A program made the position numbers and the translations under genes. A stretch of DNA of 64,000 nt from Candidatus Nealsonbacteria bacterium (lineage in GTDB: Bacteria; Patescibacteriota; Minisyncoccia; Minisyncoccales; MHMH01), in assembly GCA_016181965.1 (NCBI GenBank), contig JACOYH010000003.1, positions 129,013-193,012 of the forward strand, written 5' to 3'. The notes under the pieces were generated by a model, which saw only the letters and a list, made by a program, of their open reading frames with translations, searched no databases and was not told the origin of the DNA. This document shows positions 3,106 to 60,994 of this stretch, in pieces. Each line of letters begins with the position of its first letter. Positions within the stretch are counted from its first letter, which is position 1.

Positions 3106-4304
3106 TTATAGCCAGTCCAAGGGCCCTGATCGCATTGTCATTTTTTCCTCTCGTTGTTTTGTTTGCGGGAGGATTTTTTGTTGCTACCAACTGGAAGACA
3201 GCTCTATATTATCCCGATGATTTTGAGGGGGAGGCGCAACAAGAGTCCAGTAAGACGACGGCAATAATCAAAGAGTCGCCGCGAGAGAGAAGCAAGCACG
3301 TAAAAGGCATATATATGAACGAACACGCGGCAAACTCTAAAAGCGCAAACGGCGCAGCTATTCGCGAGGAAATCGCGGCACTTTTAAGCCAAACCGAATT
3401 AAATGCCGTGGTTATTGATATAAAAGAAGCAGACGGCGCGTACCTTCCATCATCGCTTAAGAACTACATAAACGAGCTGCACGAAAAAGATGTTTGGGTC
3501 ATTGCCAGAATTTCCGCTTTCAGGGATTCATCGTTGCGCGAACAATATCCGGAGTGGTATCTTTGGAGCAAAAGAGCAGATAACTCATTGGAGATTTGGC
3601 AAGACGCGGCCGGCGGACACTGGCTCGACCCGAAAGGCCCTGGCGCGCAGAATTATATTATTGATTTCTCAAAAAAGGCCGTTGATTTTGGTTTCGACGA
3701 ATTGCAGTTTGACTACATAAGATTTCCCTCCGACGGCAGCGTAGGCGATGCCATCTATCCTTTTTATAACGCACAAGAGGAAGAAAAATACGATGTAATC
3801 GGCGAATTCTTTAATAAAATATCGCAAGATCTTCGCGAGTATGACCCCGATATCATTCTTTCTGTCGATTTGTTCGGATACGTGGCGGCTCATCAAAGCG
3901 CCGCGGAAATAGGACAGCGAACTTATGATGCGGCGCAGGCCTTTGATTATATTTCCTATATGCTTTATCCCAGCCATTTTTATAGCGGTTTGCAAGTTGG
4001 CCCGGACGAAAGACGCGATTTGCCGGCCATAAACCTATCCGGCGAAACCATTTCCAATAGTCCCTATTCTGTTATTGCCCGCTCTATTTTTATCGCTTCT
4101 GATTATCTCGCATCAATCGGTTCTGCGGCAAAAATCCGGCCATGGCTGCAGGACTTTAATATTAACAAAGATACGGAAAGAGGAATTTATTACGATGCCA
4201 AAAAAGTGAGAGAGCAGATTTTAGCCGCCGAAGAATCGGGAGCCAGCGGCTGGCTTTTGTGGAATCCATCCGCCGCATACACCAAATCCGCCCTTTCGCC
4301 ATAA
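3102..4304 (+). CDS. putative glycoside-hydrolase-like TIM-barrel protein (DUF4015/GHL-like), membrane anchored
   Basis: 400 aa. N-terminal TM helix, then GIYMNEHAA..VVIDIKEADG..WLDP..DELQFDYIRFPSDG, a pattern I associate with this family. Start overlaps the clp stop (ATGA). Confidence 0.5.
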   Translation: MIIASPRALIALSFFPLVVLFAGGFFVATNWKTALYYPDDFEGEAQQESSKTTAIIKESPRERSKHVKGIYMNEHAANSKSANGAAIREEIAALLSQTELNAVVIDIKEADGAYLPSSLKNYINELHEKDVWVIARISAFRDSSLREQYPEWYLWSKRADNSLEIWQDAAGGHWLDPKGPGAQNYIIDFSKKAVDFGFDELQFDYIRFPSDGSVGDAIYPFYNAQEEEKYDVIGEFFNKISQDLREYDPDIILSVDLFGYVAAHQSAAEIGQRTYDAAQAFDYISYMLYPSHFYSGLQVGPDERRDLPAINLSGETISNSPYSVIARSIFIASDYLASIGSAAKIRPWLQDFNINKDTERGIYYDAKKVREQILAAEESGASGWLLWNPSAAYTKSALSP

Positions 4305-15224: not shown

Positions 15225-15851
15225 TTACTTTCTGTTATCAAGAGAACTTTTTAGGGTTTCCGGGTCGGCGTATTCGAGTTCGCCGCCTATGGGCAGGCCT
15301 CTGCCCAAACGAGTAATTTTTTTGCCAAGGCCTTCCAGCTTTCTCTCAACATATAGAGCCGTATTTTCGCCTTCCGGTGTTGAATTAGTGGCTAATATAA
15401 TCTCGATTATTTCGGGGCCCTTGACCCTTTCCGCCAATTCTTTTGTTCGTAGCATTTCCAAATCTTCCTGTTTTAGCTTTTGGACAGTGCCTCCCAAGAT
15501 AAAATATCTGCCCTTATATTGTTTCGTGTTTTCGAGAGCCGCCAGATCGGATTCCTTTTCGACCACGCAAATAACCCGTTTTTCCCGTCCCGGGTTGCGG
15601 CAAATTTCGCATAGCCACTCCTGATGTTTTGAGGGTTTATCCTGAGCCGCGTCGAAGGGCTCGAATGGATTAAAACAAAAGGAGCAGAGCTTGACCCTTT
15701 CTTTCATTTGTAAAAGCGACTCGGCAAGTTTTTTTACTTCTTCGTCGGATGTCTTGAGCAGGTAGAACACGAAACGCGCGGCGGTGCGCGGGCCTATTGT
15801 TGGAAATTCCGAAAAATGGGCAATGAGTTTTTTTATTGCGGGGGGATACAT
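15225..15851 (-). CDS. recR: recombination protein RecR
   Basis: FPTIGPRTAARFVFYLL (HhH), C4 zinc finger CSFC...CEIC, Toprim (VICVVEKESDLAALE). Confidence 0.9.
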   Translation of the reverse strand: MYPPAIKKLIAHFSEFPTIGPRTAARFVFYLLKTSDEEVKKLAESLLQMKERVKLCSFCFNPFEPFDAAQDKPSKHQEWLCEICRNPGREKRVICVVEKESDLAALENTKQYKGRYFILGGTVQKLKQEDLEMLRTKELAERVKGPEIIEIILATNSTPEGENTALYVERKLEGLGKKITRLGRGLPIGGELEYADPETLKSSLDNRK

Positions 15852-18666: not shown

Positions 18667-19095
18667 ATGCAACTCATATTTCGCCAGGCAATAAAATTTA
18701 TTTTGATCGGCATACTGAATACGGTCATTGATTTGGGCATACTAAACGTTTTAATCTTAATCTCGGGCGTATCCGCCGGCCTTAGCTATTCAATATTTAA
18801 GGGAATCAGTTTTACTGCGGCCGTCATCAACAGTTATTTTTTAAATAAATCTTGGACTTTTCAGAGAGGCGCGACAGGCGCGCCCCGAAAAGAATTTACG
18901 CAATTTTTTATAGCGAGCGTTATCGGCTTTGGCATAAATGTCAGCACAGCGTCTTTCGTGGTTAACTTTATCGGACCCCAACTCGGCGTTGGGGCTAATA
19001 TCTGGGCAAACGTTGGAGCAATTCTGGCAACGCTTACGGCTATGTTCTGGAACTTCCTTACTTATAAGTTTATTGTTTTCAAAAAATATGTCTAA
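18667..19095 (+). CDS. GtrA-family membrane protein
   Basis: 142 aa, 4 TM. KFILIGILNTVIDLGILN...WNFLTYKFIVF pattern of the GtrA family. Confidence 0.8.
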   Translation: MQLIFRQAIKFILIGILNTVIDLGILNVLILISGVSAGLSYSIFKGISFTAAVINSYFLNKSWTFQRGATGAPRKEFTQFFIASVIGFGINVSTASFVVNFIGPQLGVGANIWANVGAILATLTAMFWNFLTYKFIVFKKYV

Positions 19096-20179
19096 TTTGG
19101 TTTTATACCGAAAATATAGGCCGAAGACATTTGGCGAGGTAGTGGGCCAGAATCACGTTGTGCAGACGCTGACCAATGCGGTATCTTCCGGTTTGATTTC
19201 CCACGCTTATCTTTTTGCCGGCCCTCGCGGCTCTGGCAAAACCACTATTGCCCGCCTGCTGGCAAAGTCGCTAAACTGCGAAAGCCGGGAAGAGGGGCAA
19301 TTTGAGCCGTGCGGCAAGTGCTCCTCGTGTTTAGAAATCAGCGCCAATCGGGCTATGGATTTAATAGAAATTGACGCGGCGTCCAATAGGGGCGTTGATG
19401 ATATCCGCGAGCTGAGGGAGGGGGCTCGCTTTGCTCCCGCAAAGTCAAAGTATAAGATTTTCATCATAGACGAATCGCACCAGCTTTCAAAAGACGCGGC
19501 TAACGCCTTGCTTAAAACACTGGAAGAGCCGCCCAGCCACGCTGTTTTTATTTTAGCCACCACGGAGTTGCACAAAATGTTGCCGACTATCATTTCTCGC
19601 TGCCAAAGGTTTGACTTTCGGAAACTAACGATTCCGGAAATCGTGGGTAATCTTGAGGCGATTTCCAAAAAAGAAGGAACGAAGATGGAGAAGCCAGCTC
19701 TGGATCTTATTGCCGTTAATTCCGGCGGTTCTTTGAGAGATGCTTTGGGTTTGTTAAATCAGGTCATGACCTTTGGGGCTAAAAGCGCAGAAGAGATAAA
19801 GGACTTGTTGGGCATGGTGGACACGCAAACTGTCGCCCAATTTGCCGAGTTTCTTTGCCAAAAACAAGGCGCTGAAGCCATAAAGTATCTCAACGATATT
19901 TTGGAGAAGGGGAAAGACCCCCAGGACTTCACCAAAGCGCTCATTAATTATTTTAGGCAGAGTTTGGTTTTGAGAATATCTCCCGGGTTAACCAATCCTA
20001 TCTTGGTGGGATTTTCGCCGGAAGAAGAGCAGACGATCAAAGGGCAGGTTGAAAGATGGAACGAGAGCGATTTGCGAGTGGCCCTAAAGCTCTTTTTGGA
20101 TGCGGAGAACAAAATGCGCCACTCTTCCATAATTCAGCTGCCCCTTGAATTGGCCATTGTTGAATTATTAAGTCATTAA
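19088..20179 (+). CDS. dnaX: DNA polymerase III subunit gamma/tau (short form)
   Basis: ORF 18938..20179, start moved to ATG 19088 (MSNLVLYRKYRPKTFGEVVGQ). GPRGSGKTT, zinc module CGKCSSC, IIDESHQL, SRCQRF. Confidence 0.9.
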   Translation: MSNLVLYRKYRPKTFGEVVGQNHVVQTLTNAVSSGLISHAYLFAGPRGSGKTTIARLLAKSLNCESREEGQFEPCGKCSSCLEISANRAMDLIEIDAASNRGVDDIRELREGARFAPAKSKYKIFIIDESHQLSKDAANALLKTLEEPPSHAVFILATTELHKMLPTIISRCQRFDFRKLTIPEIVGNLEAISKKEGTKMEKPALDLIAVNSGGSLRDALGLLNQVMTFGAKSAEEIKDLLGMVDTQTVAQFAEFLCQKQGAEAIKYLNDILEKGKDPQDFTKALINYFRQSLVLRISPGLTNPILVGFSPEEEQTIKGQVERWNESDLRVALKLFLDAENKMRHSSIIQLPLELAIVELLSH

Positions 20180-20240
20180 GTCATTAAGTCATTAAGTCAT
20201 TAAGTCATTGAGTCATTAAGTCATTGAGTCATTAAGTCAT
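20169..20240. repeat. tandem array of nine 8-mers T(A/G)AGTCAT
   Basis: Units at 20169, 20177, ... 20233; units 6 and 8 are TGAGTCAT. The dnaX stop codon lies in unit 2 (TAA 20177-20179). The array ends 1 nt before ATG 20242. Confidence 0.95.
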
Positions 20241-20241
20241 T

Positions 20242-20604
20242 ATGAGCGAGATAAAGTCATTCCAAGATTTGAATGTCTGGAAAGAATCTCATTTTTTAAC
20301 ATTGGAAATATATAAAATTACAAAGAATTTTCCTAAAGAAGAAAACTACGGAATAATTTCGCAATTAAGAAGAGCGTCTTCTTCTGTCCCTGCTAACATT
20401 GCCGAGGGAATGGGCAAGAATACTACCAAAGAGTTATTAAACTTTATATATAATGCCAGAGGATCTTTATCAGAAACTATTTATCACTTGATTTTAAGTA
20501 ATGATTTGGGGTATATAAAAGAGGCCGAATTTGATACATTACATAGTCGATATAACGGATTAGCGAAGGGCGTTAATGTGTTTATTTCAAAGTTAAAAAC
20601 TTAA
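20242..20604 (+). CDS. four-helix-bundle protein (23S rRNA intervening-sequence protein / Avd-like family)
   Basis: 120 aa. YGIISQLRRASSSVPANIAEG...ARGSLSET is the signature I recognise for this family. Confidence 0.85.
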   Translation: MSEIKSFQDLNVWKESHFLTLEIYKITKNFPKEENYGIISQLRRASSSVPANIAEGMGKNTTKELLNFIYNARGSLSETIYHLILSNDLGYIKEAEFDTLHSRYNGLAKGVNVFISKLKT

Positions 20605-20632
20605 TCACTCAGTGACTTAATCACTCAGTGAC
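20601..20632. repeat. two tandem 16-mers TTAATCACTCAGTGAC, imperfect inverted copy of the upstream 8-mer array
   Basis: Units at 20601-20616 and 20617-20632. Reverse complement GTCACTGAGTGATTAA versus upstream GTCATTGAGTCATTAA. Confidence 0.9.
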
Positions 20633-20640
20633 TTAGTTAT

Positions 20641-20711
20641 TGCGGGGTCGTCTAACGGTAGGACATCAGGTTTTGGTCCTGAGTATCGGGGTTCGAATCC
20701 CTGCCCCGCAG
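20641..20711 (+). tRNA. tRNA-Gln (anticodon TTG), no encoded CCA
   Basis: Acceptor TGCGGGG/CCCCGCA with the U1:A72 pair typical of tRNA-Gln. Anticodon stem TCAGG/CCTGA, loop TTTTGGT. T-arm CGGGG-TTCGAAT-CCCTG. Confidence 0.85.
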
Positions 20712-20718
20712 CACTTCG

Positions 20719-21348
20719 ATGATGGTTATGATGGCGGTTGAACCTCCACCGTCCTATTTTATGGATTTTAACTTATTTATTCAGATTATTTTTATTTTTA
20801 TTTTCTCCGTGGTTTTGGCTGCCTTGGAATCGCAAATAGAAGGAGATGCGGGTTGGGCCGGAAATTTACCCACATGGAAGCCCTCTCTTGCTCATTGGTA
20901 CGTCCGTTTTTACAGGAGGATAATGTCCGGCAAGGATATGACTGGGTACCATTTGTTCATCTTTGGCTTGGTTTTCCTTTTTATGCATTATCCGTATTTT
21001 GCCGGTAAGGAGTGGAGTTGGTCTTCGGAGTGGGCCACACTTTCTTTATTTTTTCTATTAACTATTTTTTGGGATTTTTTATGGTTTGTAATCAATCCCC
21101 GTTATGACTTCCGTCATTTTTGGGCGCGAAAAGTTTGGTGGCACAAAAAATGGTTTTTGCATTTACCGATTGACTACTGGTTTGGCTTCATGTTTTCCGC
21201 CATACTCTATGTTAAATTTTCTTTAAATTGGTTATTGTTTCGGGAGTGGCTGGAGATAGTAGCTTTATTCCTTGCTCTTACTTTAACCGTAGTTATTTTT
21301 GCCATTAAAGTTGGCATATTCACTATAGACAGCCAAGAACAAAACTGA
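20719..21348 (+). CDS. hypothetical polytopic membrane protein, Trp/Phe-rich
   Basis: 209 aa, about 5 hydrophobic segments. No family recognised. Confidence 0.5.
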   Translation: MMVMMAVEPPPSYFMDFNLFIQIIFIFIFSVVLAALESQIEGDAGWAGNLPTWKPSLAHWYVRFYRRIMSGKDMTGYHLFIFGLVFLFMHYPYFAGKEWSWSSEWATLSLFFLLTIFWDFLWFVINPRYDFRHFWARKVWWHKKWFLHLPIDYWFGFMFSAILYVKFSLNWLLFREWLEIVALFLALTLTVVIFAIKVGIFTIDSQEQN

Positions 21349-42082: not shown

Positions 42083-42105
42083 ATACACCGGTGCCACCGG
42101 TGTAT
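42083..42105. repeat. REP-like palindrome, variant copy
   Basis: ATACACCGGTG-C-CACCGGTGTAT directly after the cupin stop, followed by the partial repeat TTCGGTGTATTTTT. Confidence 0.85.
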
Positions 42106-59274: not shown

Positions 59275-59297
59275 ATACACCGGTTCAACCGGTGTAT
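59275..59297. repeat. REP palindrome copy (loop TCA)
   Basis: ATACACCGGT-TCA-ACCGGTGTAT, 21 nt upstream of the RAYT ATG. Confidence 0.9.
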
Positions 59298-59318: not shown

Positions 59319-60032
59319 ATGAAACGTCCAAAGTTTGCTAACGGCGAATTTTATCATATTTATAACAGGGGAGTAGAGAAAAGAAATATCTTTCAGCAGA
59401 TTTCTGATTATTTTCGATTTATTTCCTGTTTATATGAACTAAACGATAAAAAATTAATTAAAATGCGTGATCGTTTCGATGAACGTCAAAAAAGTAAATA
59501 CACCGGTTCAACCGGTGTATCTCGGGAACCGCTACTAGAGATTGTAGTATTTTGCCTAATGCCAAATCATTACCATTTAATTGTGCGTCAATTGGCAGAT
59601 GGAGGAATTTCACTTTTCATGAAAAAATTATCAAATGGTTATACCGGATACTTTAATGAAAAATATCATAGAAAGGGGATCGGGTCATTATTCCAGGGAC
59701 GCTTTAAAGCTGTACATGTAAAAAATAATAGGCAGTTGATGGCTTTAGTGTGTTATATTTTTACTAACCCCGTTGAATTAATGGAAAAAAATTGGAAAGA
59801 GAGAGGAGTGAAAGATTTTAAGAAAACTATTAAATTTTTAAAATCTTATCGTTGGTCCAGTTATTTAGACTATATTGGAATACCAAATTTTTCATCTGTA
59901 ACGAAAAGAAATTTTGTAACAGAATTTTTCGGCGGACCTGATAAGATACAAAAAGCCGTGGAAGATTGGATTCTTTATAAAACAGAACTCAATAGTGGTT
60001 TAGGGGGAATAGGAAGTATGGTTTTAGATTAA
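59319..60032 (+). CDS. IS200-like Y1 (HUH) transposase, RAYT type
   Basis: GEFYHIYNRGVEKRNIF, HUH block MPNHYHLIV, YRWSSYLDY (Tyr region). Very AT-rich gene. Confidence 0.85.
   Translation: MKRPKFANGEFYHIYNRGVEKRNIFQQISDYFRFISCLYELNDKKLIKMRDRFDERQKSKYTGSTGVSREPLLEIVVFCLMPNHYHLIVRQLADGGISLFMKKLSNGYTGYFNEKYHRKGIGSLFQGRFKAVHVKNNRQLMALVCYIFTNPVELMEKNWKERGVKDFKKTIKFLKSYRWSSYLDYIGIPNFSSVTKRNFVTEFFGGPDKIQKAVEDWILYKTELNSGLGGIGSMVLD
59498..59520. repeat. REP palindrome copy inside the RAYT coding sequence
   Basis: The same 23-mer, read in frame: with the flanking codons it encodes KYTGSTGVS. Confidence 0.9.
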
Positions 60033-60033
60033 A

Positions 60034-60070
60034 ATACACCGGTTAAAATACACCGGTTCAACCGGTGTAT
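60034..60070. repeat. REP half-site plus full REP copy
   Basis: ATACACCGGTT (60034-60044), then ATACACCGGTTCAACCGGTGTAT (60048-60070). Confidence 0.9.
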
Positions 60071-60971: not shown

Positions 60972-60994
60972 ATACACCGGTTGAACCGGTGTAT
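60972..60994. repeat. REP palindrome copy, flipped loop (TGA), nested in a larger imperfect palindrome
   Basis: ATACACCGGT-TGA-ACCGGTGTAT, with outer arms AAAGATAC (60953-60960) and GTATCTTT (61007-61014). Confidence 0.9.

Follow-up and report, generated by a model that had tools for sequence, protein, structure and literature searches.

The window analyzed here, a 64-kb stretch of DNA (64,000 nt) from Candidatus Nealsonbacteria, a CPR lineage, carries between dnaX and a tRNA-Gln gene a small gene for a four-helix-bundle (4HB) protein. This gene is bracketed by two arrays of tandem 8-nt units that are inverted with respect to each other and are predicted to pair across it in a long stem, so that the open reading frame (ORF) occupies the loop (Table 1). 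We refer to the gene together with its two arrays as the cassette. The dnaX product is 100% identical to a protein (P0121) named DNA polymerase III subunit gamma/tau of Candidatus Nealsonbacteria.

Table 1. Features of the dnaX/tRNA-Gln interval, in window coordinates
Feature	Position	Strand	Remarks
dnaX (DNA polymerase III gamma/tau)	19088..20179	+	Pfam DNA_pol3_delta2, DNAX_ATPase_lid, DNA_pol3_gamma3
Upstream array, nine 8-nt units T(A/G)AGTCAT	20169..20240	+	units 1-4 unpaired; units 4/5-9 form the 5' arm
Stem 5' arm	20199..20237	+	RNAfold, minimum free energy (MFE) and centroid structures
4HB gene, 120 aa, PF05635/TIGR02436	20242..20604	+	ORF occupies the hairpin loop
Stem 3' arm, two 16-mers TTAATCACTCAGTGAC plus TTAG (reverse-complement 8-nt units)	20599..20637	+	
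tRNA-Gln(UUG)	20641..20712	+	ARAGORN; Rfam RF00005, 58.8 bits

The units of the upstream array follow the order TAAGTCAT (five times), TGAGTCAT, TAAGTCAT, TGAGTCAT, TAAGTCAT, and constitute the top tandem array of the window (TRF: 20167-20242, period 8, 9.5 copies, score 138). The true start of dnaX is near 19088 and its TAA stop (20177-20179) lies in unit 2, units 1 and 2 supplying the last two sense codons (Ser-His) as well as the stop. A single T separates unit 9 from the ATG of the 4HB gene. Downstream, TRF reports an array with 100% match at 20599-20635, in which TTAATCACTCAGTGAC occurs twice (20601-20632), from the ORF stop to 8 nt before the tRNA gene. The stop codon itself (TAA, 20602-20604) falls within the 3' arm of the stem. 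The positions that a first-pass annotation had read from the letters of the sequence are all confirmed. With up to 2 mismatches, the 16-nt double unit has 12 matches in the window, all at this locus, for 0.07 expected. Neither a further 8-mer array nor a further 4HB gene was found elsewhere in the window.

The first-pass annotation had also proposed that 20204-20235 pairs with 20601-20632. A hand recount returns the same 28 Watson-Crick pairs, 2 U.G pairs and 2 C.C mismatches, and folding of 20160-20720 with RNAfold extends the stem to 37 pairs between 20199-20237 and 20599-20637 in both MFE and centroid structures. The C.C mismatches are 20214/20622 and 20230/20606. Mean pair probability is 0.92 over 42 long-range pairs (the 37 of the stem and 5 outer pairs). 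A mini-hairpin consisting of the arms and a short linker reaches -47.8 kcal/mol against -18.4 +/- 3.3 for shuffled sequences (z -8.9). This energy, together with the excess of double units, indicates that the stem is not due to chance. The alternation of A and G in units 5-9 is mirrored by the 3' arm. The 5' arm ends 5 nt before the 4HB start codon and begins about 20 nt downstream of the dnaX stop, while 4 nt separate the last paired base from the tRNA gene.

Assignment of the gene to the family first found in 23S rRNA intervening sequences (IVS) is borne out by profile searches. Its product matches Pfam PF05635 (E 2e-38; 131.3 bits for a cut-off of 33.8), residues 8-110 covering positions 1-103 of the 106 of the profile, and NCBIfam TIGR02436 (E 1.7e-35; 121.5 bits for a cut-off of 24). 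It also matches at the sequence level a homologue of solved structure, XCC0516 of Xanthomonas (PDB 2GSC; E 1.6e-17). The family motifs NIAEG and RGSxxE are present, with N52, I53, E55, G56, R73, G74, S75 and E78 invariant in an alignment of 34 sequences. Searches of defence (PADLOC) and phage (PHROGs) libraries gave no match.

The cassette is surrounded by cysS, a GtrA-like gene and dnaX on one side and, past tRNA-Gln, by a membrane ORF, a DUF192 gene and a GGDEF gene. The tRNA is the sole Rfam match in 19800-21000, even at a permissive threshold. Near dnaX but on the opposite strand is recR (15225-15851, -). A 454-aa ORF, cysS and the GtrA-like gene lie between the two, an arrangement unlike the common dnaX-ybaB-recR order.

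Insertion of the cassette at the dnaX/tRNA-Gln junction

4HB proteins 68-79% identical to that of the window occupy the same position, between dnaX and a closely following tRNA-Gln, in L001, L002-7, L088, L168, L171-175 and P0002 (L and P numbers are our own handles). Degenerate 8-nt arrays lie on both sides of the gene in every orthologous cassette for which DNA is available (P0002 is known as a protein alone). In L176 and L177 the upstream gene is ftsX, with tRNA-Gln still directly downstream. Among orthologous cassettes dN is 0.14-0.24, dS is saturated and dN/dS is at most 0.13: the 4HB gene is under purifying selection. Such low ratios with saturated dS indicate that the protein is functional and that the copies of the cassette are old.

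The core of the unit, RAGT(G/C)A (RAGTSA), is kept in 7 lineages despite the saturation of synonymous sites. Selection for pairing alone would not yield this conservation, which suggests that the arrays are also recognized in a sequence-specific manner, most plausibly by the protein that the cassette itself encodes. Array length, by comparison, is unstable: L171, L172, L174 and L175 encode an identical 4HB protein and have from about 2 to 7 downstream 16-mers CACTTGAGCACTTGTT. L175 shares the 5' half of its tRNA-Gln with the others but departs from them in the 3' half (anticodon CUG) and in the gene that comes next, suggesting a recombination event within the tRNA.

The junction was compared with that of cassette-free genomes, and no arrays without the gene were seen there. 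In a sample of 80 dnaX loci from species-representative genomes, none has a 4HB gene within 3 kb of dnaX. In many Parcubacteria a spacer of just 3-24 nt, free of arrays, separates the dnaX stop from tRNA-Gln, and the cassette is an insertion relative to these relatives. The site is for example empty in L188 (74% dnaX identity to the window), where an 18-nt spacer precedes a tRNA-Gln near-identical to ours, and in L010 (5-nt spacer), whose dnaX is 66% identical to that of the window and 78% to that of the cassette-bearing L002. In L186 (86% dnaX identity) the gap is filled by a 230-aa ORF and in L187 (79%) by a GIY-YIG ORF. The dnaX product ends in IVELLRTQEK in L186 versus IVELLSH in the window (the stop codon following in both). 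The array has therefore taken the place of the last dnaX codons and provides the stop.

Filled sites (the window, L001, L002, L088, L168 and L171) are interleaved on the dnaX tree with sites that are empty or otherwise occupied (L008-L014, L186-L188); for example, L002 is 78% identical in dnaX to both L008 and L010, which are cassette-free. This distribution needs either several site-specific gains or many losses. Inspection of the array boundaries against the empty sites of L010, L014, L021, L033 and L188 revealed no target-site duplication. The cassette contains no transposase or recombinase, its sole ORF being that of the 120-aa helical-bundle protein. No case of presence/absence polymorphism between strains was found: three short-read contigs with a dnaX identical to that of the window (L183, L184 and L185) all terminate within the array, 17 nt after the stop codon of dnaX. 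Short-read assemblies therefore break at the array, and such cassettes may be under-represented in metagenome-assembled genomes.

Other small ORFs occupy the same site. GIY-YIG ORFs of 84-114 aa are located at the tRNA-Gln gene in L001 (3460-3880), L002 (1565-1945), L025 and L187 (2494-2901). In L001, L002 and L025 the ORF has a 5' fragment of the tRNA on its upstream side and a complete tRNA-Gln on its downstream side, and in L002 and L025 this fragment is itself split by a G+C-rich hairpin. The insertion looks like a homing-type element that duplicates the 5' part of the tRNA. An ORF of about 230 aa with a LYWAEG motif fills the gap in L008 (3385-4070), L022, L024, L030 and L186 (2656-3348). 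The L008 copy has no Pfam match. It follows a hairpin, GAACCACGG...CCGTGGTTC, whose loop is TATAAT-like. In L008, L022 and L186 the ORF runs into the tRNA-Gln gene, the 5' end of which supplies its final codons. In Parcubacteria the dnaX/tRNA-Gln junction is thus a hotspot in which several kinds of small selfish ORFs alternate.

Short tandem arrays around PF05635 genes

The survey was extended to 80 further loci with homologues at 39-71% identity, among which 62 distinct full-length genes were analyzed. The 80-90 nt before the start codon were compared with an equal length past the stop, 253 other ORFs from the same DNA serving as controls. The inverted-repeat score exceeds the 95th percentile of controls at 39 of the 62 loci (Mann-Whitney p 5e-14). 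Once family members had been purged from the controls, inverted repeats dominate at 41 of 62 loci, compared to 5% of controls, which answers in the affirmative the earlier question whether other copies of the gene carry flanking inverted arrays. By eye, a short tandem array abuts the ATG at most loci and its reverse complement abuts the stop in two thirds of them. The period is predominantly 7, with 8 in the clade of the window and a few others. Units vary from locus to locus (GATTTAA, GTGAATA, AGTAGCG, TAGTAAT, CGTGGCC and others), as does, widely, the G+C content of the flanks. The PF05635 family as a whole is therefore characterized by flanking arrays of short tandem units, with a period of 7 or 8; in two thirds of cases the two arrays are inverted.

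The arrays have a constant polarity. G exceeds C in the 5' arm at 36 of 37 loci (256 G and 63 C in total). Since an inverted repeat reads alike from either strand, this is a property of the element and not a strand bias. The first-pass annotation had remarked that the 8-nt period places stop codons in all three frames. This is true at our locus and common in the family: the 48 nt before the ATG contain stops in all three frames at 26 of 37 loci, against 41 of 253 controls. With a period that three does not divide, a single stop triplet in each unit is enough to cover every frame. This coverage, together with the absence of C from stop codons, provides a rationale both for a period of 7 or 8 and for the polarity.

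Family genes are inserted among co-oriented neighbours (50 of 56 upstream, 41 of 52 downstream), the median gap being 43 nt on the upstream and 38 nt on the downstream side. Of 20 loci that were sampled, none falls within rRNA. The position of our cassette outside rRNA and next to a tRNA, to which the first-pass annotation drew attention, is thus real, but it is the norm of the family rather than an exception. The similarity of repeat units tracks that of the proteins (Mantel r 0.23, 0 of 999 permutations), a correlation confounded by the common descent of the cassettes. Repeated 5-mers are shared by 93% of pairs with at least 70% protein identity and by 11% of those below 45%.

Individual loci illustrate the variety of these settings. 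Plasmids of the cultured bacteria Nostoc and Riemerella provide independent examples of inverted arrays, the Riemerella 4HB gene lying between AAGGTTY units. A Calothrix 4HB gene has no arrays. In L140, L116, L121, L097 and L110 the cassette is directly upstream of a thioredoxin-reductase-like gene (called from its N-terminal GGGPAG-type sequence), and in the first four the 3' array overlaps the ATG of this gene (…atcATGAATCC…). The upstream gene has a similar tail in L140, L116 and L110, which therefore define a second conserved cassette site. L115 contains, on the same contig as another family member, a second and divergent PF05635 gene (3226-3591, E 7e-13) with its own distinct arrays of about 8 nt (TAATTAAC/TAGAAATT). 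In L095 (2850-4480) atpD has on one side the 3' array of a 4HB cassette and on the other an inverted pair of the same GTGACTA-type heptamer arrays with no gene inside, possibly an "empty" hairpin. L107 (2330-2830) shows an apparent tandem of two 4HB genes, each placed after the same AGTAGGT-type array; the second is recognized from N-terminal residues only, and the whole upstream array is directly repeated.

A literature search, with most subscription journals outside its reach, found no published account of an association between arrays and PF05635 across the family. The inverted-array architecture of these genes is apparently undescribed.

Comparison with known elements and possible fate of the cassette

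The closest known counterpart is the 23S rRNA IVS of Coxiella burnetii, in which a terminal stem of 28 bp encloses an S23p (PF05635) ORF in its loop and 3-4 GACAGAT heptamers in tandem, of strain-variable copy number, directly precede the ATG (PMC4990558). RNase III cuts this IVS at the first heptamer (PMC4990558). The cut takes away the ribosome-binding region, and the protein is presumably not produced. The IVS of Leptospira, Brucella and Haemophilus are related (cited in PMC4990558). The likeness in architecture proposed by the first-pass annotation is supported. Both elements have a PF05635 ORF in the loop of terminal inverted repeats (37 bp in our case), tandem repeats before the ATG (nine T(A/G)AGTCAT units here) and a variable number of repeats, between strains in Coxiella and among the related loci L171-L175 here. 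Both would also be part of a stable-RNA precursor, as the Coxiella IVS is and as our cassette probably is. They differ in location, a junction between a protein gene and a tRNA gene as opposed to helix 45 of 23S rRNA, and our cassette lies in neither helix 25 nor helix 45, the insertion sites of 23S IVS. They differ as well in period (8 instead of 7) and in the state of the ORF, strongly selected here but decaying and probably untranslated in Coxiella. Cleavage by RNase III is demonstrated in Coxiella and presumed here. The locus is an IVS-type PF05635 cassette in a variant setting, with a period of 8 and in a tRNA leader.

Other systems share part of this organization. Over-represented heptamer arrays were described in Xanthomonas and Nostoc by Rehm et al. 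2015, with about 70 convergent pairs per genome (PMC4692102), and tandemly repetitive heptanucleotides in Calothrix PCC 7601 (ref. 39 of PMC4692102). Like ours, they consist of tandem units placed in short spacers between genes that are mostly co-oriented, and vary in copy number; the 4HB gene of a Nostoc plasmid (L180) lies between arrays of just this kind, inverted and of GGGAACA type. However, no link to PF05635 is drawn in those papers, many of the arrays have no gene between them, and one unit type occurs at about 180 sites per genome there but once in 64 kb here. The layout is alike, with a period of 8 in our case and of 7 at most other family loci. The Calothrix heptanucleotides are reportedly those named STRR by Mazel in 1990.

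Repetitive extragenic palindromes (REP) with their REP-associated tyrosine transposases (RAYT), or REPtrons, also consist of a small gene bracketed by inverted copies of a short repeat, which the RAYT product recognizes. In contrast, RAYT belongs to the Y1 transposases, whose fold is known to cleave DNA, and each REP forms a palindrome on its own, while the 4HB protein has no catalytic motif and its tandem arrays pair across the gene. One REP/RAYT-like unit is present in the same window. A 237-aa IS200-like Y1 transposase (PF01797, E 3e-7; 59319-60032, +) is flanked by REP-like palindromes ATACACCGG-N5-CCGGTGTAT, of which the window contains five copies (42083-42105, 59275-59297, 59498-59520, 60048-60070 and 60972-60994), and the whole looks like a RAYT/REP unit. 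L128 has an ORF homologous to this transposase, with palindromes of its own. Eukaryotic foldback (FB) transposons have terminal inverted repeats made of tandem short units in variable copy number. Being eukaryotic, much larger and not homologous, they provide an analogy only.

We favour, with a probability of roughly 0.55, the view that the cassette is excised as an IVS from a dnaX-tRNA co-transcript. No sigma-70-like promoter (+ strand) or terminator-like site was found between dnaX and tRNA-Gln, and a promoter would not fit into the ancestral spacer; a single transcript of dnaX, cassette and tRNA-Gln is therefore most likely. The cassette, lacking a promoter and a terminator of its own, would be transcribed by read-through from dnaX. 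Its 5' array, with a period that is not a multiple of 3, would end dnaX translation in any frame, and terminating ribosomes would leave the stem unmelted given the distance between the dnaX stop and the stem. In the transcript the paired arrays would form a long double-stranded RNA, a standard RNase III substrate. Cleavage would then separate three products, the mRNA of dnaX, the RNA of the cassette and a pre-tRNA-Gln, whose short leader would be trimmed by RNase P. The host genes would remain functional, as 23S rRNA does after excision of its IVS. The precedent for cleavage is the homologous IVS of Coxiella rRNA.

Several observations weigh against the excision view. The two G.U pairs, taken by the first-pass annotation as a sign of an RNA-level stem, do not have this meaning: the minus strand folds equally well (z -4.5 vs -3.8). 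A census of mismatches at 43 family loci, aligned with a strand-neutral score, counts 913 Watson-Crick positions, 87 transversions and 33 wobble-type mismatches in the sense RNA vs 38 in the antisense only. There is thus no excess of sense-RNA wobble pairs indicative of RNA-strand selection over the 43 loci, and complementarity could be maintained at the DNA level. The arrays are direct rather than inverted at 4 of the 62 loci, and 17 have none within 80 nt. In the Pseudanabaena galeata plasmid pPg_01 (L182, 1370-2000) the 4HB gene is located between cas6 and cas4 with direct arrays, about 15 CTAAAAG upstream and about 9 CCAAAAG downstream, which makes a fifth direct locus and an exception to the hairpin rule. 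No RNase III was recognized among the scanned ORFs of the window, a result that is uninformative for the whole genome. A plain stem would need neither tandem periodicity nor a conserved unit sequence. Finally, the Coxiella protein is thought to be unmade after cleavage while the protein here is clearly under selection, so excision cannot account for everything. The conserved core, the correlation between protein and repeats and the instability of copy number fit a sequence-specific reading of the arrays, possibly by the protein of the cassette. The same three regularities also fit a DNA-level process that keeps the arms alike, with which a stem in the transcript is still compatible.

The main alternative, possible but tentative, is that the arrays act chiefly at the DNA level, as inverted terminal binding sites recognized by the 4HB protein, like those of a foldback-type element that moves or recombines. 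Through them the cassette would be inserted, maintained or changed in copy number, and the hairpin in the RNA would be incidental, RNase III processing being still compatible. The lack of any preponderance of G.U over A.C mismatches speaks for this reading, which would also account for the RAGTSA core conserved in spite of saturated dS, for repeats that follow the proteins in similarity, for the fixed inward polarity and for the 2 to 7 16-mers of contigs with an identical protein. It also agrees with the patchy occurrence of the cassette across the dnaX tree: of the relatives looked up, those nearest in dnaX (86, 79 and 74% identity) are cassette-free, and the nearest 4HB proteins looked up (P0002 and P0003, 78-79%) belong to hosts with a dnaX about 60% identical where measured (L168). 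The same type of cassette lies 5' of tRNA-Gln behind ftsX in L176, and array hairpins exist without a gene, after atpD in L095 and as seventy convergent heptamer-array pairs in Xanthomonas (PMC4692102). But neither the cassette nor the genes beside it include a transposase, a recombinase or a reverse transcriptase, the boundaries of the cassette show no target-site duplication, the unit has a single locus in 64 kb and, with dS saturated between cassettes, no recent transfer is documented. Moreover, patchiness is also explicable by repeated loss or by displacement by other occupants of the site, and the correlation between proteins and repeats by the common descent of whole cassettes.

An uncleaved hairpin with a regulatory role in cis, which would control translation of the 4HB gene by sequestering its start region, or would stabilize or insulate both the 3' end of dnaX and the precursor of the tRNA, appears unlikely. 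The position of the arms, one ending just before the ATG and the other including the stop, implies that initiation needs the stem to open; the 8-mers contain no Shine-Dalgarno-like motif, and a protein under purifying selection must be translated somehow. Yet 37 bp are far more than a regulatory hairpin needs, the homologous rRNA stems are cleaved, and periodicity, polarity and conserved unit sequence are left unexplained. Functionless slippage repeats whose complementarity is an accident of the near-palindromic TGAGTCA unit are strongly disfavoured. The unit is indeed pseudo-palindromic, the downstream array matching the upstream one at 60-63% in direct orientation, and copy number is unstable, but loci with non-palindromic units (GGGAACA, GTGAATA, AGTAGCG, GATTTAA) still have complementary arms, inverted arrays are far commoner than in controls, and neither the A/G alternation mirrored in the 3' arm nor the polarity and the conserved core is expected from neutral slippage. 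Even less credible is a role of the gene as accessory protein (Avd) of a diversity-generating retroelement (DGR). The Avd protein bAvd is a four-helix-bundle pentamer that binds nucleic acid and reverse transcriptase, and the Avd genes of DGRs are not known to lie between inverted arrays of repeats. Homology of PF05635 to bAvd has been noted (PMC10053308), and some close homologues of our protein have a weak match to PF22296 (bAvd). However, no reverse transcriptase is present among the called neighbours in the window, L001, L002, L171 and L176 (template and variable repeats, TR/VR, were not searched for), and the gene lies among housekeeping genes and next to a tRNA. A DGR context is rejected in so far as the adjacent genes can tell.

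Implications for the PF05635 family

Genes annotated as "four helix bundle protein" or "S23 ribosomal protein" are found in several phyla, and the function of the family has been elusive since the early 1990s. The over-representation of heptameric repeats in bacterial genomes is equally unexplained (PMC4692102). The locus and the survey tie these repeats to the 4HB family through arrays that are inverted in two thirds of cases, have a fixed polarity, usually provide stops in all frames in the 5' array and co-vary with the protein. A more general view, speculative and rather doubtful at this stage, is that the PF05635 protein and its flanking 7- or 8-nt arrays form one self-contained and very widespread element. 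The protein, as a pentameric ring, would recognize its own unit, and the polar, stop-rich inverted arrays would allow harmless residence in operon junctions, tRNA leaders and 23S rRNA. The heptamer excess of cyanobacteria, Xanthomonas and other bacteria would then be largely the footprint of this element or its gene-less derivatives. If this is true, the 30-year-old "IVS protein" gains a function and a class of transposase-free element is defined. The main value of the present analysis is to expose the general architecture of the PF05635 family, with testable consequences for a protein of unknown function.

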